This document shows positions 2,174 to 51,359 of a stretch of DNA of 64,000 nt, piece by piece. The notes beneath the pieces were generated by a model, which was given only the letters and a program-made list of their open reading frames with translations, had not been told where the DNA came from and did not search any database. Position 1 is the first letter of the stretch. Every line of letters begins with the position of its first letter. Source of the DNA: Hydrolagus affinis (taxonomy: Eukaryota); assembly GCA_012026655.1 (NCBI GenBank), contig JAAILG010000246.1:1-64000 (forward strand), written 5' to 3'. The translations under genes were made by a program, and so were the position numbers.

Positions 2174-4076
2174 TGTGTTAAGCGGTGTTCATCCACAATA
2201 CACGCCTTTTCATTTTGGATCCATCCAATTTTAAGCACGTCACATTCAGATGCAATAAGTGCTTATAATCAGTGCAGTCTTTCAAGCAATAGAGCTTTAC
2301 ACCTATTCTTTTAAATCTACAGAAAACATGATGCTTCAACTTGCCTGCTGTGAGTAATATGGATTATCCCTTGTTTCAGGTTCATGTTTACCAGCCAAGA
2401 TGAAAGTAGCAATGCTATCTTCTGAGTTGATGTAGTCCTGTTCTCCCTTCCATAGATAAGCATTTATAATGGAACTGGTTGAATATTCTCTCCCCAAAAA
2501 ACAAGGCATTACTGTAAACATTGTGTTCACTCTATTCTGACAAATGCATTAAAGATTCTATAAATTCTAGTTCTATGACTTAGTTTTCTTTCTGAACCAA
2601 CTGCAGTGACACTCACAATATTCCAAAAGGGCAGCCTTGATGACCAAAAACGACATACATTGCAGTCCAACATGCGACCTGTGCTGAGGGTAGTGTCACA
2701 TGCGAATGATGATCTTCATCAGGGTGCATACGATAGTATGTTACTATTCAGAAATGTTCAGTAAAAGAAAATTAAAGTGCACAGACCTGAAAATACGTAG
2801 CCAAAACAGTTTATTAATCTGAAGGCAAACATTTTATGAAGCTTGTTGTTAATTACTCATTTACTTTAATTAGTCTTGGACAAACCCACACTAAAATGCA
2901 TTGGTTTTGAAGCAAAACGAAAGGAAGGTTGCTTGCCCTGTCTCTGAATGTGGATAAAGATGCACTTTGGATTTTAAAATGTGCTCGTTACACATGCTAT
3001 TATTTCGGAAAATAAAATTTGCAACAAAGCTGCAGCCACTGGCTTCAAATTTTTGCAGTTAATTATATTTTTCAACGACCAATGTTCTTGGTGATCAGTG
3101 CTCTTCCCACTGAATATTTTCCATGATTGAAAATTGTTTGAAGATTGCAATGATGACAATCTGTAATTGATTTCCAGGAGGCAATAACAGGTGAGGCAAA
3201 ATTCTGCCGTAAACAATGTATGATTTGCAACGATTGAATCCATCCACTTCACATCGTTCCCCTGTGCAATAGTCCCACTGATTCCACCCACTTTGCTGAC
3301 ACACCCTGCACTGCGTTTTTTCACACATCCATTTGATCTTCTGCATAAGGTGCCATCAGCTAAATGATCAAAGCCCAGAGGTAATCATATGCAGGTAAAA
3401 GTTAGCTACATTAAGTGATGGGAATGGTATAATGAACGTCATGCACAAAAGAAGAGCTGCTTTAAAGAGAACTATTCCCTGTGTTCTGCATTCACTGCAT
3501 TCTAATGAGGATTATGAAGGCCATCAACATCCTGAGTGCAACCGAAAAAAAAATCAGAAACTGAAAGAAAAATTTAGGAACTTTCTCATCAGTATTGTTG
3601 AAATAAATAAAACTAAAATAAGCAGGGAGAGGGCAGCACAAGAACATTTACTATTTCTCCAATTTGACTTTATGGATGACATACAGTCATTTCGACTTCA
3701 TTCCAAAAAAATTGGATATACATTAATCCTATTAGGAAAAGGAAGGCCTTTTTCAGTTTCCAAAAAGTATCTAATGCAACTTACAGTCATTGATTTCTAA
3801 TAAATATTATAGAGCAGATTAGTAACCTGCAGTAAATGAGCTGTTTCTTTTCTGAGAGAAACTCTGCAAATTTTTATATTGTACGTATGTTCGCTCTTAA
3901 TTAGCCCTGAAATTCTTCTTCAGGCACAAAAGAAAAGAAGCAGATTCCACTTATTTGGACCCCACAAATTTATCATTTGCATCTCATCTCACCATAAAGC
4001 CAGCTGTACTCTTACCCTATGCTCGAGAATGGTCTTGTCATATTTGTGAGATACCACCAGAAACATGTCAGATACA

Positions 4077-4125
4077 TAATAATAATAATCCTTGCATTTG
4101 ATATGGCGCTTTTCACATCTTCCGG
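4077..4125 (-). mobile_element. SINE 3' tail fragment
   Basis: (aat)n ccttgcatttgatatggcgcttttcacatcttc, the same tail as 51053-51090. Confidence 0.85.
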
Positions 4126-5405
4126 AGTAAGATACAGCATTCAAGCGATTCAGAATCAATTTATGCCAAAGTAAAACTGTTATATAGTGTATGAAATTGT
4201 ATGTTTAAGCAAGATAGACATAAGTGTATAGCTAGATCATCTACAACAATGAGAACCAGTGACCGCACATGAATTCTCAGATGTGAATCATAACGTATTG
4301 TGAGGTGTACCTCTTTCTGAGCAACCGAGTGTGAAAAATTTGCTGGATGTAAGCCAAACATCAAAGACCATCAAAATTCCAAGCATATTGGTGGAGAACA
4401 AACACAGCATAAACGTTACACAACACCTGTAAAAAAAACTGAGCACCAATGGAGACAACAAACAGGAACAAAAAACAAGAAATAAATATTTCATTTATGT
4501 TGGAAATACACAGGGGAATAAGCATATTGTTTTGCCAGAGAACAACTATACTGTAGATATGCATGTAACAAAAATACTTCACAAGATTGTGTTGCTCAAA
4601 GCAACTGGATAATGCACAGCAAAGAACACAGACCAAGTCTTCATGAGAAGACACACACAACAGCATGGAGTGAATAAGGTGCAGCCAGAGAACAATACTA
4701 ATCAATCAAGCCATACGGATCTCAATTCATGCAGCACAGATGGTGAATATGTTTATGCCACATGCTGAGTAACCTGTCCCAAACAACTGATGGTTCAAGT
4801 AACCATGCTGAACAAACCCCTTTGAAAAGTAATGAGAAACTCTGGTGCAAGTGTAAACCTACTCAATCAGAATGTGTACAACAGACTGAAAGAACATATA
4901 CGAGATGAGAAATGAATGTTAAGGTTTCTCCACATGGATAATGTGCATGTCTGCTAATTAAGGGACAAAATAGTGCTGCAGTTGGATCCAAAACAAAAAT
5001 AGCAAATGTAAAGGTTCTCTCATGATGGTAAAGCGAAAGTAGTCATTGCTGAAATATCAGGCAGCATCCGGACAAGAATGATGCAAACCCTCAACTCCAT
5101 TCTAACAGATTAACAGATGTCACAACTTCAGTTGCAAACATTGGAAAAGCAGATTACTGCCTACAACACGTGCCCGGCTGCACATACTGACAATAACGTT
5201 CAACATCCACATATGTCACAGTTGCCTGATCGACAATGACAAAGGGTAAGCATCAATGACATAGACTTTATCCATTTAGAAATTATCTTTTTGTTGCAAC
5301 TGATGAATACTCTTGGTGCTCCAGAGGATAGATTGTCAAATCCACGAAAACAAGTGCAGGTAGTCCACAGAACCATCACTGAACCAACCATTCTCAGCAT
5401 TCATG

Positions 5406-5714
5406 GAGCATCTATGGAGAAAGGAAAGTGAGTCAACGTTTCGAATCCATGACCCTTCATCAGAACTGGGGCATGTTGGGAGGAAGAGGCTTTTAAGGAC
5501 TAACAAAGAGGGGGGTTGCAGGGCAAGGAAAACAAAGGAGGAAATGTGGTAGAGGACAGAAGATGATGGGTTAAAGCGAAACTTAACCCGAAGGGTCGTG
5601 GGCCCGAAACGTTAACACACTTTCTCCATAAGTGCTGCCTGACCTGCTGAGTGTTCACAGAGACTTCTATTTTTGTTTCTGAATTCCAGCAGCTGCAGTA
5701 TTTTGCATTTTGTG
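5406..5714. mobile_element. Non-autonomous Penelope-like element (inverted pseudo-LTR arms) with 13-bp TSD
   Basis: Flanked by an exact direct repeat CTCAGCATTCATG (5393-5405, 5715-5727). Arms 5407-5458 and 5590-5636 are inverted copies of each other. The 3' part (tgctgcctgacctgctgagtgttc...ctgcagtatttt) recurs at 36981-37105. The Penelope assignment rests on the hammerhead-type motif and recalled shark repeats. Confidence 0.8.
5431..5467 (-). ncRNA. Minimal type I hammerhead ribozyme motif (Penelope-associated)
   Basis: Minus strand: AGUU-CUGAUGA-A-GGGUC-AUG-GAUUC-GAAA-CG-UU-GACU. It has core boxes CUGAUGA and GAAA, stem II GGGUC/GAUUC (with G:U pairs), a palindromic ACGU stem III, a GUU triplet at the cleavage position, and helix I AGUU/GACU. 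Activity is not shown. Confidence 0.65.
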
Positions 5715-6439
5715 CTCAGCATTCATGTTCCTTAAGAACTTTCTACAGCAATGAACTGTTAAAAAATAATGATAACTTTGGTTTGAAGAAAACACACCAA
5801 GTTGGATCAAAGCCAGTGCTAATGTAGAGAGCTTTATGGAATCAGTAGAGAAACTTATTTCTACAAATTGAAAGAAGAATTCTAGAAAATTTTGTGATAC
5901 TTGTGAAACAAGTAGCACCTCAACTATCACATGATAGTTAAATCTCCAGCAGAAACCCTATAGATTCAAAAATGAACAAATCAAACTGCTCAAAACTTTT
6001 CAACCTCCCACAATAACATCCAGATCCCCAATTCAGAGGCAAAGTCATTCGACAGGAAATAAAGTGATTTGCTACTGGTTTATCAAACGAAAGAGAAACT
6101 GCCTGCACTATTCAGTCTAAAAACTTTGCAGAGTGGTTAATGTTAAAGGTCACTGCTCTTCAAGAAAGGTATACAGTAACCAGAAATTTATGGCACTTTG
6201 AGATCAGTGAAAGTTAATCCCAGCCTGTTTGCTCTGAGAAGTAACCGTAATGGGGCTGATGACACAAGGCGTAAAGAAATCTATAAATGTTCGAGTCTTT
6301 CATAATGACCGAAACTCTACACAAAAGAGAGGGAAAGCGAAAAGCATTATCGTGGTAAAGTTGAAAGAATGTTGTAATGGGAATAGACAAAAAACAGTGA
6401 TTTGTAATCTGCAACTATAATTAATTTTTTCTGTCTTGT

Positions 6440-6950
6440 CAACATTTAATTGCAAGAGGTTTTTGCTCATCCAGACAAGCCGACAGAAAATCGGTGAACC
6501 TGGAGTTGTAGCTGGAGGAGGTGAAGTGGATTAGTGTGTCATTCACAGACCACTGGAAATTTACCCTGTATCCGCAGATGACATCGCCAAGAGGGAGCAT
6601 ATAGATGAGGAGGTGGTCAAGGATGTAGCCATGGGGTACATCATATGTGACAAGGCAGGGGTGGAAGGAAAAACCTTTTGAAGAGGCAAAGTGAAGGCAG
6701 ATTGTTAGGTGGGACTTGAACCAGGCTAATGCGGTTCCACTAAGTTGAATACAGAAGGTGAGGCGATGAATGAGGATGGCATGGTCGACTGTGCTGAATG
6801 CGACAGAGAGGTCCAGGAAGAAGTGGAGACAGAGGCTGCCCTGGTCACAGAAAAAGAGGACGTTGCTTGTGACTTGACAAGTGCTATGCTCAGGGCAGAA
6901 ACCAGACTGGAGGGGCTCGAGGAAGAAGTGGAGGAAAAAAGCCACAGGAA
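6440..6950 (-). mobile_element. Decayed L2 LINE reverse transcriptase fragment
   Basis: ORF 6439-6945: LEPLQSGF.P.HST, LDLSVAFSTVDHAILIHRL, SGTALAWFKSHL, VPHGYILDHLL.IYMLPLGDVI, then 'VNDTLI' where YADDTQI is expected. These are degenerate RT domains. Confidence 0.9.
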
Positions 6951-8269
6951 AGAAAAAGTTTTCATATAATCTTTACAAGTCATATTGTTATATCTTTCCT
7001 TGTGGTTACAATGGCATATCAGCTATCCGCATTAATTAAACCGTTGTAGTGCCCATATTCCTTTATCAAAGACTATTTATGCTTTAGTTGTGAATTCCCC
7101 TAAACATACACGTAATTCACTGACTCCTTTATGTTCCTTTTAAGTGAATGCTGCATTTTTGTCAATAAATGTTGTCATTCATTTAGGAAAGAAAATTGGC
7201 TTCATCTGAGGTCTCTATCAGAGTTCCAACAAATCAGGTTAATTGGTGATCAACAGTGTCTTTCTGTCTATAATGAGGCAGCATAGCCCAAGGCAAAAGA
7301 CCCATCCCTTGATGAGAGACTTTCCTCTTTCCTTCTCTGAGCTCTTTGATCACTTCTGGTTTGAGACAACTGTAGGGAATGGCATTGTTTTTAATTGCCT
7401 TATTACTAAATGGACTAGATAATGTATAGGCGCGTATAATTAATAAAATTTGTATAGGTTATTACCACTAACAAGACTCATTAGGATCAGGTGGCTTCTG
7501 TCTTTAGATTTCATGTCTCGAACTCCTTTGAATCTGTGACTAAACCCATTTTTTTGTGGAAAGCATTTCTAAAAGTTAAATAATTTCCATAATCATTTTA
7601 TTCTTTTGCAAAATCCAATTATAATTTTGATTACGGGATTATTTTTGTGCTAATAAACAGCACCAAATATTCTTGTCGTTAATGCACAAATTACATTAAT
7701 ATGCCGATACAGGTATCAGCACATATGATCACCCAAGCAAATTAAATTGCTTATATTGCTGCACCAGACCCACAGATTACAATCTTCAGTGCCTTTCTCA
7801 TTAACTTTTATGTATCCTTAACCCACAGACTCCTAAGAAATCTGCGGAGACGTCCATCTCTCAGGGCCAGCCAGTTTTGTACGTTTTCAAAGCATTGCAA
7901 TGCTGAAAAGAAACAATATCGCAATAATGAAGCTACTCAAACATTTGGATTGCTTTACTTCTATAATCGTAATCTTAACCCAATAAAATAAATACAAAAG
8001 CTGAATTTGAATAACAATAACGCATTGTAAATGCAAAGTTGTCTTTGAAGGCTACGCCATGCTCATTTGCCCTTCCAGTCTCTCCCCTTCCCCTTTCTAC
8101 CTCTGTCCTTTTTTAATTGAAACGCTAAGCTATATTCCACCCACGTTACTTCTTTTGTGCGGATTCAAACCGTTACTTTTTGAATAATTTCTAACTTTGA
8201 AATCTGTTCATTACCTTGCTTACAAGCAACCGTCTACAGAGTAAGATGAGACAGCGAGAGTTTGAAAAT

Positions 8270-15325: not shown

Positions 15326-16505
15326 TTTCTGCAGATGTGTTTAGTTAATGGAATGGTTTAAATCAGTCACATTGAAAACAATTCAGTACCAATAAGCTGT
15401 GTGGTCCATCCCAGCCTCAATCTAAAATAGCATCATGGCCTAAATTGATCCACAGGCAGGGTCAAGCTTAAATCCTGACAGAGCCCTCAATAGCCCAAAG
15501 TCCCCATGACCTATATGCACCTCCAGCAGGCAACCTCACCATAAATGTCTCTTATTTTAACTCCAGTTTCAGTATCTCTTTTTAAGTTTCACTGCGTTCT
15601 CAAAACCTTAATCAAGATTCATACTTCCTTCTTTTACTGGTTTTACAGAAAAGCAGAATATAATTTGGGACATCAGTAAAATCAGTGAAGAAACTAATCT
15701 TGTGTTACTTTAAGTCTAACAATTTTAAAGGAAACAGTCTGTGTGAATGGAAAGGACTGTATCTTGTATCGAACAAGTTTTTGTTGTGTTTCGGGGGTGG
15801 CAGTTTTGTTTCGATAAAGGTGAATAATTCAACAAATCAGATGAAGTGGGAACTTATTTCTTTGTATGGACTCCTGGATGCATCACAACTGTGTTGCCTC
15901 CGAAGATAGAAAGCACTATGTCTACCAGTGATCTGATGACCCCAGTCTTTACTGTGCGATGTTGATGATTGGATTGGAAATGCAAATAACAGTCACTATG
16001 TGTGCTTTTGCTATAGACTCCAAGTTCCAACAAACAATTGTATCCCTTGTTCACAGCCATAAGAAATGTCTTGTCAGGAAAGGCTGAATGATTAAAATAC
16101 TGTACAACAGTTGGAATCTCAGTTTTTCTAATGAATGTTATTAATAAAGGGACATGATTTGTTCTATCGCTCAATACTGCAATACAAAAAAAGACATTCT
16201 AGTGTTGCAGAATATCACGTTTCATACACTGTAGATGGTGAGGAAGCTGTGAGCAACAAAATTCAGTGGCTTAAATTGAGGATCCATTAAGATGACAAAC
16301 ACAAACAATTTGCTAAATTTATAGCATATTGTATACAGATGGACAATATTTCTCCTTGTTGTGCTATATAAATCTCAGGTACAAAGAATAGAGTAAAATC
16401 TCTCAACCTTTTATGCTTGTGCAGTTAATGCCGGTTGATGTTCTGATGATTTATAGTGGGTACACAGGCACTTATACCAGCAGCTTATTTATTATCTACC
16501 TGAAG

Positions 16506-17180
16506 GTATGATCATCAATACTGCACATCATCCTGATACTCAATTCCTCTGTTATCCAGTAGGAATCCACTCAAAACTTGCTAGGTAGGCAAAGATAAGA
16601 GGACTAGTCTGGCTTAAGCAGCTAAAACATGATTTTCAGTTGCTCTGCAGCAGTTGAGAAATTGCAAATTAATCAGAAATGTGCTGCCATTTGATATTTA
16701 GACAGACACAAGGCTGGAGAATGGAAGCATTGTCCACCATCACCAAGAAGCATGCCAAGGAGCAGAAGTCAACATGATTTGTCTTGTCGTCTTAATCCAC
16801 AGTGGTGCTGCACATTGGGTGCCAAATCGTTGCCAAAATTGTGTCAATTCACAAGCAAAGGTATAACTACCATACAACGTAAATGTAGGATTTGTTTTCA
16901 CTAAACAAGTAAGTATGAACCAAGGCATAAAAGATATCTTTATTTCAGGCTGTGTCTCTTAAAGATCACAAACGGGGGAAACAAAAATGATAGTCATTAT
17001 CAGGAACACTGGCAAAAGTACTGTGCTTTCTCAACTGCTGGAGAGCAAACTGAAAATCTTGTTTTAGCTGCTTAAGCCAGACTAGTCCTCTTATCTTTCC
17101 CTACCTAGCAAGTTTTGAGTGGATTCCTGCTGGATAACAGAGGGATTGAGTATCAGGATGATGTGCAGTATTGATCTCCC
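16506..17180. mobile_element. Long-inverted-repeat element (MITE/foldback-like), possible 8-bp TSD
   Basis: Arms 16514-16661 and 17027-17175 are reverse complements with 5 substitutions and 1 indel by manual alignment. ACCTGAAG flanks both sides (16498-16505, 17181-17188). Confidence 0.65.
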
Positions 17181-17299: not shown

Positions 17300-17552
17300 C
17301 TTGTTGTTGATTCCAGACAGGGGGAAACCTTGGGTAAGTTTCCTTACTCCACACGCCTGATAATAATCCCTCAAAAAACACAATAATAATTTGGTGCCTC
17401 AATCCACGACTGTTTGTGGGACATTGCTGTGCGTTTCACCCACATATATACATATATACAGTCAATTCATTTCACATTATATTCCGTGAAGCGCTTTGAG
17501 ACATTTAGAAGACGTGAAAAGTGTTGTATCAAATGCAAGGATTACTATTATT
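17300..17552 (+). mobile_element. tRNA-derived SINE (head largely lost)
   Basis: aaaccttgggtaagtttccttactccacacgcctgataataatccctca...tcaatccacgactg...gaagcgctttgagacatttagaagacgtgaaaag...atcaaatgcaaggattactattatt is colinear with the reverse complement of 51053-51300. Confidence 0.9.
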
Positions 17553-20500
17553 GTTTTACAGAATTCCGTTTGAGACAGCCACAATGAGTGAATACTAAGT
17601 GCAAAAGCCACCAGGCATTGGAGGCAACTACCTCCATCCCTATCCCAGAGTCACTGAATTGGGCTAATGTGTAAGACAATACTCTTGAGCTTCATCAATT
17701 CAGCGATGCACTCTCCATTCCCCCCACCCCCAAACACTAAAACAATCAGTAAACAATGAACGGTCAGAAATTTCTATTTTTCTTCAAAAAATGTAAAACA
17801 TTTATGTTAAATATATACACAGTATATACATATCAGGATCTACATTTGTTACTAACAATCCAGTCACTAACAGTATAATGTTGTGACATGTCCACTTCAA
17901 TGCTAAAACACCAAAAACCTCATTACTCTTATACAGAGTGACATTTATGCATCAGTGTCACTGACAGTTGAGAGTTCAGAGATCTGTCCATGCACAGCGC
18001 CATTTTTAATTATGATTTTTACATAACTTATTCCCTTAAAATTACCTCTGTTCCTTGTTTCAGTTATGTTTGAGGCCTTTATTGCTAAAAGCTGTTTTCT
18101 TCCTCTTTTTCCCATCCCCATGTCTTCATTTAATTTGAAGACACAAACAGTTTTATCCCGTGACTCTTACAATGTTACTGATAAGAAATCTCTTGCCACA
18201 AATGTAGAGCAAATAAGGGGATGCCGATCAATCGAAGTTCAGTTCATATTCTTTAGATCAAAATTTGAGTAAATTTGCTTTTCTATATATTTTTCACCAT
18301 CTCAGTTGAATATGTGTCAGACCAGATCAACATTGTTCACGGCAGCACCACAAGATAAATAAATAAATAATGCATACATGGACTATTTCATCTTATTCCT
18401 TAACTCCGTCTGAGATATATTTCTTTCTCTTTCCCCTTCCTCATATTTGACTTATCTTTAATCCTTTCTATCCCTTAACCACCCTCCGCTTCATCCCCTC
18501 ATAACATTTACAAGTCACTGGCACATATGTCTTGTTTGTAAGCCTTGCATTTTCAGAGCTGCTTAGTTTTGTACCCAAGCCACATTACAGTCAGCAATGC
18601 CACCTGGGCCTAGTGAAAAGCTTAGCCAGTAGTAATGCCTACGGTATATATGACTGTAACACCTTAAGGTCAAAGGTTTGTTCCAATTATTATAAATCCA
18701 ATGGATAATGTAATAAGCAAGATTAAAGTAGCCTTTACATCACTGTGGAACAGAATTAAAAAATAACATCTGCTAACTTTTCACTGCCAAGGAAGGATGC
18801 TGCAGGTAGCTAACACATTGGACTTTGGAAGAGCAGATAGTAGGGACACCCTGCTGCCTGCTCGTACAGGTCAGAGCAACAGCTTGGCAAATGTCAGAGG
18901 GCATGGTGTATGTGGTGATGATTGGTCAATGAAAGACATTACTTTGAGCGTAGAAACAGAAAATAAGCAATATGTTTGGAATTAAGGCCAGGAATGACGG
19001 GTAAAATGCATAAGAAGCTTTACGGGAGCTTTGTGAACCTGTTTCATATTTGCTTTTAGCAAACAGGGCTGTGCTGTGGCTCTGGCAGGCTGGCATTAGG
19101 CAGGCAGAATAACAAATCCCAATGCATATTCAAATTAGTCCAACCCTCAGATTGCTGAGTCCATGCCAGATGTTGTCTGTGCCTCATTCACTGCACATGT
19201 GTCACATTACACAAAAACCAGATAATCATTACCGATGATTATAAGAGACACCATGTCCAGTCATCATATCACTTACATTTATGCAGAACATTTGTGACAG
19301 GGGTTGAAGGGAACAGAATGCAGCTGTCCAACATGAACTCCCTTTCAAAATAATCAAATAAAATGGCCTGCTGCTCACTGACAGACACAGAACTCTGAGC
19401 AGCAGCTGTAGATTTTTTTTAAAAAGGCAATCACCAATTATGGCATCACGTATGTGATTAGGACAAAAATTGCAGCAAGGCTTTTAATTTTGTCAGGCAA
19501 GAGAGATATGCAGCTTAACCTGCTCATCAGATCATATTCGACTTCATCTTCTATCCGCTAACTGCACTCCACAACTCAATGCAATTGCCTCAGAAGAAGG
19601 CAGGCACGTTGCAGGCAAACTGACATCATGTAATTTGTCTGTAAACTCTATTGTTTCTGGTAGAAAAAAAATATATGGTCATCGAGGGGCAGGAGTGAGG
19701 GGGTGGGGAGGAAATGGGGATGGGGGGGAGAATCATCTTCCTCCCCAAATTAAATTACAACAATTCCAGAAACTGGAAATATTAATGAAATATTTTTGGA
19801 GAGAAAGATGCCAGCTGGGTCTACATGTACTCTATGTGACATTTCAGAGGTTCCAGAATTTGGCGAATTCTTAAACACAGCCTGCATTTTTAAACTGGTT
19901 TTGTGTAAGTTATTTTGAGAAGAGACAGAAAATCAACAAGGTTAAAATGAATTTCAACAATTTGTCGGATGCTGTATGTAATAAAATGGTGTGTGAACAG
20001 AATAAACGTAGTCCCAAAATAAATTTCTCTCTTATAGTTTCAACAACTTTTGATTATTGGCATGATTAACTCTTTCGGTTCAAGAAACGAGTTTCCTCAA
20101 AACGTATCTCGCTGCAGTTTATCAAATTCATCCATTGTGCATGGGAATTATTTTTAAAATAAATATTTTTTCTGTAGTATTTTCTTCAGTTACATAATTT
20201 TGAATACTAAAATCTATTAAATCTTTGGGGAAAGCAGTCAGATTGTCAATTCTTCGTCAATTTGGAAAATGAATTAATTTATTCCCATTTGTATATTCTT
20301 TACAGCACAAGTCAAAGAGCGCACATGAATGAGGGTTTGTTTTCCTCCTTGCCTTGAAATGAAATCCATTTACAATCACTATATTTTAACCCATTCACAT
20401 AGACAGTGCCAAATGCAACCAGCACAAAATTTACCAAAGTAGCTATAAATGGCTTACATATTTTGCATTAAATATACTTTCAAAAATGCACCTAATTTCA

Positions 20501-21575: not shown

Positions 21576-24439
21576 AATCCTAATAATTGCTACTGTATTC
21601 TCTGAATGGTGTGAAACTTTTGACCTCTTCATATGATCTAAGATAATACAAAATTATGCAAAATTACAAGTGTTTTTCTGTATTTAAATGTGTTTCATAC
21701 TGAGAATAATAAAATAAAGTTTTAATTATAATTTTTCTAGATTACATCAGTCACAATAATATGCTTCAAATGAAAGGATGATCCTTTCTTTGAAATATAC
21801 GTTTGAAGCAATATAGATGCTGTGTATAAAGTTACGATTTTACGAAGCATCGAATGCTTATGCAGAATTAAAAGTAATGATTTTTAGGGATGTTTTTACA
21901 AATAGAATTGCTATACTTTATAAAAATAAACATGTAATATATCTAATGCCTGCACACATTCAGCTACTGTATTAATAAACTGGATATATTTTCTGAAACA
22001 AAAATGTATTATAACTTTAATATTGATATACTATATCCACATAATTGATTCAACACATGAAAAACTTAAGTTTAAAAGTACTATATGAAGCAGAAATGAA
22101 TGCTTGTTGGAGACCTCTCACTTTCATATTAATTTATAGAATGTTGGTATTCTGCAGCACAATTGTTGCTTATTTTATCTTGTTTGGATGTTGTAATGTT
22201 TTTACATCATTTCATAGCCACAGTTTAATTCATATTATACTATCATGTTATTAGAAGGCTGGATATAAAAAGCAGGGCTGCTGCATGTGTGCAAATCAGC
22301 CAATGTCACTCTTGTCAAGATATAATGAATAGAGTGGAAACATGATCACATCTCATGGGTACATCATTACCATCACTACAGATGGGCATTTTTATACTGC
22401 AAAGCATATAAGCAACTTTAAAACATAATATTTCTATATCATTTTTAATAAATTATTTTATAATATTACTGTTTCCTCTGCATTGCATACAAACACTGGT
22501 TGACTCTGTATTGAACTAATTAAGAACTTGTATAAAATCTGTCAAGAAAATACTTCTTTGGTGGTTAATAAGGTAACTATGGTTGACTAATTTCGTATTT
22601 TAAACAATCCAAAATAATAAGCAGAAATGGCACTGATCAGGGTTTGAAATCTATGCAATAAATATTTTTTGACTAAAAAGTCGCTATTAATCAATAACTA
22701 TGGTAATTCTAATATAAACAACCTTATCAATAGCTATCATTAGAATGCAGAAGAAGACCTTTCAAAAGGCCCGCAAACATTGTTTAAATAATAATGGGTC
22801 CTGATGGAATATGTTATTGAGTTATCAATGCACGTTCACCATTTATTCTACAATAGATTTTCTTCATTTCCTTGTATAAAACAGTGGGCAAAGCAGAAAC
22901 CTGACAGTTGGTCCATTTGCACGTTAGGCAAACGATGATTACTTTTATTTGATCTTGTGTCAAAATTCTGTGGTTCAAAGTAGAATTATCAGGTTTACGC
23001 AATTGATTATTTTTCACATTTTCACCAATTGAACACATGTATTGTTAAATGGAACTACGTATTGAAGCCAGTGAACATGTTTATCTGTTTATAGGCAAAA
23101 TACTATATGATGTACTCAATGCCAATTTAGTATACATATAGTAGCTGTTTCTATCTGATAAGAAAATCACATGTCTGTAATATATTATAATTTGTATTGT
23201 TTAAAAATAAAGCAAATCATATTTCTATAATCTTTGGAGGGAAGCAGTGATCAAAGAGTTTTATTAATCATATATTAAAAATTATAATACATTCCTATTA
23301 GCATAAACCTTGTTACCTAAGATTTGGTAATCATTAATATTTTAAACAATACAAATTAAATATGTTTATGCAATTTAGTCGATGTCTTTATAATTACTGA
23401 TGTTGTAAGTAAAGTACTGTATTACTTTGCTTTAGTTTGACCTCTTTCAAATGGCAATTTTCTGGTTACAACTCATTTCACTTCATATAGTGGTGTAGAT
23501 TTTCTTTGTACAATTCCCTGATAGCACAATTTTATAGTTTTCCTATTAATAGTGAATACATATCAAATATTTCAAACATTTGAATAACTACCACAAAGAG
23601 CATTACAATAAAGGTAGGGGATGTATTCTAGAATATTTCCAAATGAAAAGTCAGTTTTAAAACTGTCTTTCATAGATGATACATATTGTATGATATACTA
23701 ATTAGGTTATATAATGCACATTAGTTCATCATTTCTATGAATAAAACTGACATTCTTCTTAGATCAGAAAACTTAAAAGTGAAAGAAAGATAACATTTAA
23801 ACAACAATCAAAAATATTATTTACACATACTCTTTCAAGAGACAGTATAATATTTAAGCATTCGGTACTTTCATAGCCTTGCTATTGTACTAACAAATTA
23901 AGCCACTTTATGCTGATAATTATTTATATTAATTGATTCAAAATGTCTTGACTGAATTGTTTAAATAGTTACTTAAATTTGCTCTTCTGGAGATATAAAT
24001 CATTTGTTTGGTAAATTTGGTGCCTTGTTTCCAGTTTGTATTTATAATAATCTATTGATTTGTTCAGATAAAAGAAATACATTTCTGAATATAGAAGTCA
24101 CTGGTAACACTCAGCAGATTAGTCAGTAGTTTTTGCTGTAACCTTAAACAGGCATAATAAAATGTAGTATTGTGCTTTATTAAAAATATAAAGCACAATG
24201 ATTTATAATAATCATAAAACTATTACCAACCCAAAGAACTTGAAGTAGCACAATAACTTCTGAAGAAGTTGAAAAAAGAAGATTTAGTTTTTTTGCAGTT
24301 AAATACCGAGAGAAAAAAAGTGTTTCTCTTAGTAAGTGTCACAATAGCCTTTATTTTCAGCCAACGTCATCCGATCAAAGTATTTTAAAAATAATAAGAA
24401 ACAAAAGACTCAGCAGTTTGAAACAGATTAAATATCAGT

Positions 24440-36980: not shown

Positions 36981-37105
36981 AAAAACGTAAAATACTGCAG
37001 ATGCTGGGAGTCCTAAACAAAAACAGAAATCCCTGGAACACTCAGCAGGTCAGGCAGCATCTATGGAGAAAGAAGAAATGAGTTAACGTTTAGGGTCCAC
37101 GAACC
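36981..37105 (-). mobile_element. Penelope-like element fragment (same family as 5406-5714)
   Basis: aaaatactgcagatgctgg...aacactcagcaggtcaggcagcatctatggagaaag...gttaacgtttagggtccacgaacc is colinear with the reverse complement of 5590-5711. Confidence 0.85.
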
Positions 37106-51030: not shown

Positions 51031-51052
51031 GCAGAATAAATAGTATAACAGT

Positions 51053-51359
51053 AATAATCCTTGCATTTGATATAGCGCTTTTCACATCTTCTAGACGTCT
51101 CAAAGCATTTCACAGAATATATTGTAAATTTAATTGACTGTATATTTGAAGGCGAAACATGGTAGCCAATTGTGCACAGCAGAGCAGCAGAGTCCCACCA
51201 TCAGTCGTGGATTGAAGTGACCAATTTTTTTTCCCCCTGAGGGATTATTATCAAGCATGTGGAGTAAGGAAACTTGCCCAAGGTTTCGCCCTGCCGGGAA
51301 TTGAACCCAGGAATCTAGTTTACGAGGCAAGTGCTCTAAACACTAAGATATAGGATTCC
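51053..51359 (-). mobile_element. Full-length tRNA-derived SINE (SINE2 type)
   Basis: Minus strand starts GGAATCCTATATCTTAGTGTTTAGAGCACTTGCCTCGTAAA (degenerate A box), has B box GGGTTCAATTCCC (51296-51308), and ends GTGAAAAGCGCTATATCAAATGCAAGGATTATT. Confidence 0.93.

Follow-up and report, generated by a model that had tools for sequence, protein, structure and literature searches.

Minimal hammerhead ribozymes have been reported in fish Neptune and Poseidon Penelope-like elements (PLEs), the only two PLE groups found in the vertebrates sampled, and an extra nucleotide, a G10.1-C11.1 pair and a palindrome are standard features of these motifs (PMC4209133). A 2014 proposal holds that PLE hammerheads cleave and circularise the transposition RNA, and in vitro work of 2024 found cleavage to be dispensable. 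For the anole element, nicking of both strands and priming at the tail were shown in vitro, with insertion proceeding without need of ribozyme cleavage and cleavage requiring the protein (PMC11167929). At the level of insertion anatomy, junction palindromes are described for PLE insertions, and antisense self-priming is discussed for inverted junctions, in the accessible part of PMC3846280. A CX2-5CxxC linker between reverse transcriptase (RT) and endonuclease (EN) belongs to Neptune and Nematis and is absent from Penelope/Poseidon, as far as the available text of PMC8557442 goes.

The locus analysed here lies in a 64,000-nucleotide stretch of Hydrolagus affinis DNA (the window). The 37-nt motif at 5431-5467 is best explained as a worn minimal hammerhead, predicted to be dead, in a short head-to-head insertion of an abundant protein-coding PLE, likely of the Neptune clade; a probability of about 0.88 is given to this reading. 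When the minus strand was re-read, the letters were identical to those of the sequence-only reading, and the class it had proposed is borne out, namely a minimal type I hammerhead of Penelope type whose helix III is palindromic (ACGU here). A descriptor that required the core boxes, NUH and stems with a minimum of 4 pairs (G:U allowed) found this motif as its sole match in the window, both strands scanned. The same descriptor matched 1 of 300 dinucleotide shuffles (0.003 hits per shuffle) and none of the 300 once a palindromic helix III was demanded, a generous comparison because the descriptor was composed after the motif was already known. The Rfam hammerhead covariance models gave no match, either at gathering scores or at E values up to 10. 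The positions of the motif and of the insertion around it are given in Table 1.

Table 1. Positions of the hammerhead motif and of the surrounding insertion within the window.
Feature	Position	Strand	Basis or remark
Whole head-to-head insertion	5406-5714		309 bp, between two exact 13-bp repeats
Target-site duplication, left copy	5393-5405		13 bp, exact
Direct arm, 5'-truncated 3' UTR/pLTR end of a likely Neptune-type PLE	5407-5576	-	Copy comparison
Filler between arms	5577-5589		13 nt
Inverted arm, second pLTR piece	5590-5714	+	Hammerhead G8 through tail end
Target-site duplication, right copy	5715-5727		13 bp, exact
Whole minimal type I hammerhead motif	5431-5467	-	Core boxes intact; 37 nt
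Helix I, 5' strand	5467-5464	-	Re-reading of sequence
CUGAUGA core box	5463-5457	-	Re-reading of sequence
Extra A	5456	-	Re-reading of sequence
Stem II (5455-5451/5447-5443) with loop (5450-5448)	5443-5455	-	Two C-to-U changes, at 5445 and 5444
GAAA core box	5442-5439	-	Re-reading of sequence
CG	5438-5437	-	
U16.1	5436	-	
U17	5435	-	
Helix I, 3' strand	5434-5431	-	Re-reading of sequence
Predicted cut	between 5435 and 5434	-	Hammerhead assignment

The small retroelement that had been suspected around the motif was found, in the form of two inverted arms enclosed by an exact flanking duplication. The direct arm runs from about 113 nt upstream of C3 to about 55 nt past C3 and stops ahead of both usual tail ends of the family; it is 86-90% identical to the best genomic copies, and its identity of 159/170 to the majority sequence is biased upward, as that sequence was made from the same best copies. 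The inverted arm is identical to the family majority at 106/127 positions and lacks C3-N7, and therefore holds no complete hammerhead core. Together with the beginning of the direct arm, the first 8 nt of the filler make up a short, imperfect palindrome. In a separate DNA run, from another individual or a close relative (about 1.5% different in the flanks), contigs enter the element from both flanks, indicating that the insertion is also present there, the ribozyme itself being spanned by no contig. Elsewhere in the window, this PLE end recurs as another stub at 36982-37105, which begins in loop II and so lacks the 5' core box, and as a weak third remnant at 24088-24126.

The searched assembly (1.11 Gb in 245,464 contigs) yielded 5945 first-look candidates in the family DNA search, and exact matches genome-wide numbered 507 for a 27-nt ribozyme motif and 5114 for a 31-nt tail motif, with 0 for the reversed controls. 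Upstream, longer copies pass through a 3' UTR rich in pyrimidines and reach the end of a GIY-YIG domain, and RT, EN and pLTR follow in order at loci of the window's own lineage (L259, L263, L265, L269 and L272). All RT/EN-bearing copies seen are broken, and no intact full-length ORF was found among the family copies examined. RVT_1 was matched in one sister-lineage copy (E 3e-6; 27.5 bits, below the Pfam cut-off of 29.6) and GIY-YIG in another (E 2e-5, above the Pfam cut-off), while the 71-aa EN end by itself found no match in Pfam and the family RT none in a PDB sequence search. The translations show a CX4CxxC linker between RT and EN, which fits CX2-5CxxC, a CxxC between GIY and YIG, and the CCHH motif. 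The copies have two 3' ends about 35 nt apart, which mark the PLE tail, and in the longest copies the tail continues into the ORF start. Judged by these coding and tail sequences the family is an endonuclease-bearing PLE, and its motifs place it likely in the Neptune clade. One locus, L260, looked like a full-length element beginning at the ribozyme and was rejected as such, being a separate short insertion.

Trait counts were made on 53 tail-anchored copies spanning the motif, and they divide the peculiarities of the window copy into two sets. The extra A and the GUU triplet had been taken for defects in the sequence-only reading and proved to be family traits, the extra A being present in 50/53 copies and U17 in 50/53 as well as in all 30 loci of the 27-nt ribozyme-motif set; the G:U substitutions in stem II, flagged in the same place, did hold up, as decay private to this copy. 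U17 is a weaker cleavage position than C17, and its origin as a CpG-decayed C17 was rejected, C being found in 0 of 53 unselected copies. The family carries G at 10.1 in 49 and C at 11.1 in 44 of the 53 copies, and its helix III palindrome has C in 44/53 and G in 45/53. At 5445 and 5444 the family has C (48/53 and 51/53, respectively) and the window copy U, changes which convert family G-C pairs to tandem G:U pairs. The predicted stem II hairpin consequently stands at -0.4 kcal/mol, against -5.8 kcal/mol for the copy L057, with a predicted pairing probability in isolation of 0.12 versus about 1.0. Inside the insertion this probability falls to 0.0, and the whole-insertion fold (-87 kcal/mol) has the mirror arm pairing with most of the motif, cut site fully included. 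On these models the window copy is predicted to be catalytically dead; with the core boxes, palindrome and helix I intact, and with G:U still able to pair, it may have residual activity. Across the family G8 is lost in 14/53 copies and G12 in 7/53, mostly at CpG, and the core is kept in 22/53, or in 9/53 when palindrome and stems are demanded as well.

A looser C17 pattern gave mostly chance matches (332 versus 223 in the control), though it exposed an older hammerhead lineage (L346-L375, for example L349, L355 and L374), for which 170 pattern matches were found against 0 in the control. This lineage has A-U for G-C at 10.1-11.1, U-A for U:G at 2.1-1.1 and a different loop, with the same 5' edge as judged by eye. 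Its A-U state is linked to A1.1 (20/28 versus 3/53, p 8e-10), which makes it a true lineage rather than a set of double mutants of the main lineages, these accounting for about 5/28. Two alignments were used, the first omitting 5 of the 53 spanning copies at motif extraction, one with a deletion and one with an insertion, the second combining the first 28 rows of the former with 28 of the 30 older-lineage loci. Among the two main lineages (46 distinct rows) two-sided change was seen in 0 of 9 pairs; with the older lineage added, the covariation score was 0.252 against 0.197 for shuffled alignments (0/500), a value that reflects one lineage split selected by a change-demanding pattern. Between lineages there are one two-sided and two one-sided stem changes. 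A search for unrelated hammerhead families with altered stem II returned, among the 100 of 314 matches listed, only mutants of this same family and two singletons, and no different ribozyme was found in older RT-bearing copies.

The CUGANGA and GAAA...UH boxes, intact in the window copy, are the majority state in all three lineages, and constant boxes together with stem differences that keep pairing and a varying loop fit selection on the hammerhead fold. The sequence support that covariation would lend to the stems is modest and in the expected direction. These observations speak against the motif of the lineage being a relic, kept for a promoter, protein-binding or translation signal and cutting nothing even in the active element. 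Such a relic would account for the fixation of U17 and of the U:G pair beside the core in the main lineages and for the ends of genomic copies lying away from the cut, and the anole ribozyme is dispensable in vitro (PMC11167929); it is considered somewhat unlikely. It concerns the active element only and is compatible with the reading of the window copy as a worn hammerhead in a PLE stub.

Copy starts were mapped on arms identified by their tail, which lies downstream of the cut. The first 93 of the 5114 listed matches gave 90 loci and 92 distinct arms, which are not fully independent because six loci supply both arms. Relative to C3, 44 arms start at -7 to +1, 25 farther downstream and 23 farther upstream, and 4/92 start at +26 to +30, a range that includes the cut (+29). 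The stop rate reaches 7.7% per nucleotide at the edge, compared with 0.8% downstream and 0.6% near the cut. Half of the edge copies (22/44) adjoin an inverted arm. Among the remaining 22, a common flank was seen in just one pair, and on that ground an artefactual edge, produced by upstream sequence belonging to another subfamily, was rejected. Clear target duplications (11 nt or longer) accompany only a minority of the single-arm peak copies, 4 of 24, against 2 of 231 controls. Among 30 ORF-start loci, those reaching the ribozyme begin at -6, -4, -3, +3 and +5 and none at the cut, one extends to -121 and one starts at +38; the four loci at -3 count as one event because their flank is common to all. 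ORF-start copies with a common flank (L289, L291, L293 and L295) represent one insertion multiplied inside another repeat or a duplication. In the separate DNA run, contigs join other sequence at 5467-5468 too.

An edge at the 5' side of the ribozyme, with few starts near the cut, suggests that the copied RNA is likely uncut and likely begins at helix I. The stronger proposition, that element RNA starts exactly at the first base of helix I and that the stubs are a fossil 5'-RACE of run-off reverse transcription, is evenly poised. If true, the PLE mRNA would have the hammerhead as its cap-proximal leader, uncut in the transposing RNA, and the role of the hammerhead would be that of a brake or a switch of translation, not of a maturation step. 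The edge lies in what we take to be an initiator-like sequence. The sequence upstream of it also resembles a splice acceptor, and in Drosophila virilis an intron ends at helix I (PMC4209133), so that a splice acceptor rather than an RNA start is a rival explanation of the edge; an RT pause is also possible. Penelope promoters are internal, according to the accessible part of PMC2377424. No description of a 5' pile-up at the ribozyme edge was found in the PLE literature searched, part of which was available in excerpt, and one may be in print; copy ends are plotted in the supplementary figures of the anole PLE paper (PMC11167929).

The motif had also been thought to mark a retrozyme-like, non-autonomous family, and this did not stand. 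Copies extend 5' via the 3' UTR into GIY-YIG and RT coding sequence, and the window insertion is not a tandem repeat; since longer copies run on into RT, linker zinc finger and GIY-YIG, the motif belongs to a PLE pLTR and not to a retrozyme. A related possibility is a retrozyme- or SINE-like family in which units of ribozyme plus tail, the present insertion included, are transcribed and re-mobilised by PLE protein. The majority of copies are indeed short with a common sharp 5' edge, family RNA occurs in poly(A) reads of one sample, and animal retrozymes are proposed to be pLTR-derived in the available portion of bioRxiv 10.64898/2026.07.22.740005. The window copy, on the other hand, reaches about 110 nt into the 3' UTR of the element, short copies bear the same lineage marks as ORF-linked ones, and the flanks at the edge are unrelated apart from the single pair. 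No tandem array was found at 5406-5714, where the arms stand head-to-head and not head-to-tail; non-LTR retrozymes, by contrast, consist of tandemly repeated units bearing canonical hammerheads (PMC7229834). Such a non-autonomous origin is therefore very unlikely, and the short copies of ribozyme plus tail could still be partly self-propagating.

Still more doubtful is a functional cis/trans switch, in which a minus-strand host transcript crossing the site is cut through pairing with the RNA of another copy. The cut-site strand of the window copy matches the family, the mixed dimer is predicted at -10.6 kcal/mol in a partial dimer model, and potential partner copies number thousands. The predicted trans complex, however, consists of two intermolecular 4-bp helices (-0.5 and -3.5 kcal/mol), and in the folded insertion the mirror arm is predicted to bury the motif and to pair fully with its cut site. 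Catalytic bases are moreover lost freely among family copies, and natural minimal hammerhead dimers cut weakly (PMC4209133). As to the host transcript, 149 frames among the 189 longest (at least 62 aa) were scanned with Pfam and none gave a host exon; short exons would escape such a scan. Poly(A) reads from three runs of one sample, labelled with another organism code and of unknown strandedness, pile on repeats on both strands, and the unique flanks of the insertion have a depth of 0-0.74 in these runs. Starts and ends of the reads did not cluster at any point, a result that carries no information with this type of library. The suggestion that a host transcript could be cleaved in trans is thus unsupported. 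On another contig, a 453-aa host-like open frame (L187, 1399-2757, minus strand) lies beside a head-to-head PLE insertion. A chance likeness to a hammerhead, which the negative Rfam search might favour, is refuted at the family level by the rarity of shuffled matches, by the pairing preserved between lineages and by the position of the motif in the pLTR of an RT/GIY-YIG element, the published location of such motifs.

Taken together with the in vitro behaviour of the anole element, the preferred reading of a worn hammerhead in a head-to-head PLE insertion suggests the following course. The element protein would have cut both DNA strands 13 bp apart, and reverse transcription would have been primed from each end, at or near the tail. 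One arm would have remained short, stopping inside the ribozyme, the longer arm would have been copied from the 3' pLTR, and the insertion would afterwards have decayed neutrally. For the early end of the direct arm, we infer microhomology with the target, the sole account that this model offers. In the active element, the RNA would start at helix I with the hammerhead as its first structure or leader, the ORF opening just after, and the hammerhead would cut only as a dimer or with the help of the element protein, so that the RNA copied into the genome would likely be uncut. Priming at the tail near the RNA 5' end would give short copies running off at the RNA start, priming at the downstream pLTR of a tandem transcript would give longer 5'-truncated copies, and one short plus one longer copy would make a head-to-head unit like that at 5406-5714.

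The window holds several other repeats. At 51035-51320, 17310-17559, 4076-4122 and 2108-2172 lie copies of a highly abundant SINE-like repeat whose head is B-box-like and whose tail is AAT, its end being presumably L2-like. Nine of the 92 PLE tail flanks match this repeat, several of them at comparable internal positions, a target preference being only a lead. A LINE-type reverse transcriptase fragment lies at 6442-6972 on the minus strand (RVT_1, E 0.0012). An inverted pair of 149 bp with 96% identity, its members 365 bp apart (16514-16661 and 17027-17175), is possibly a young MITE or DNA transposon. An open frame at 15857-16198 on the minus strand resembles by eye the RT thumb of a distant PLE, Pfam giving a weak zinc-finger match only.

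As one predicted-dead remnant among thousands, the single copy is of little weight; the family statistics bear on the open question of what the PLE hammerhead does, and the genomic copy ends favour uncut linear templates and point to a precise RNA start. Publications already cover the motif class, the anatomy of the insertion and the uncut template. The motif resembles published PLE minimal hammerheads in its type I form, its core boxes, the extra nucleotide between 9 and 10.1, the G10.1-C11.1 pair, the palindromic 15.2-16.2, the 4-bp helix I and its occurrence mostly as single dispersed copies of truncated PLEs. It differs from them in a stem II of 5 bp, against 7-8 in Schistosoma, in its fixed U17, in the A-U at 10.1-11.1 of the older lineage in the H. 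affinis genome, the published norm being G-C, and in the decayed stem II of the window copy.

The insertion is like those of EN+ PLEs (PMC8557442 and PMC3846280, in their accessible parts) in joining a 5'-truncated copy to an inverted one, with a one-sided tail of 30-40 bp, a target-site duplication, a small junction palindrome and a pLTR overlapping the ORF start, and unlike them in being 309 bp long without coding sequence, its direct arm ending before the usual tail ends. Non-LTR retrozymes (PMC7229834; bioRxiv 10.64898/2026.07.22.740005) share the type I hammerhead and the link to the PLE pLTR, but are head-to-tail tandem non-coding repeats in the available text of these sources, whereas 5406-5714 is a head-to-head stub of a coding element. 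Green anole Poseidon_Ac (PMC11167929) likewise carries its hammerhead where pLTR and ORF meet, has a tail defined by two RT start sites and is copied from uncut RNA; it is without the linker zinc finger that the H. affinis family possesses, and its ORF starts in stem II, whereas that of the H. affinis family, as inferred from broken copies, starts after the cut site.
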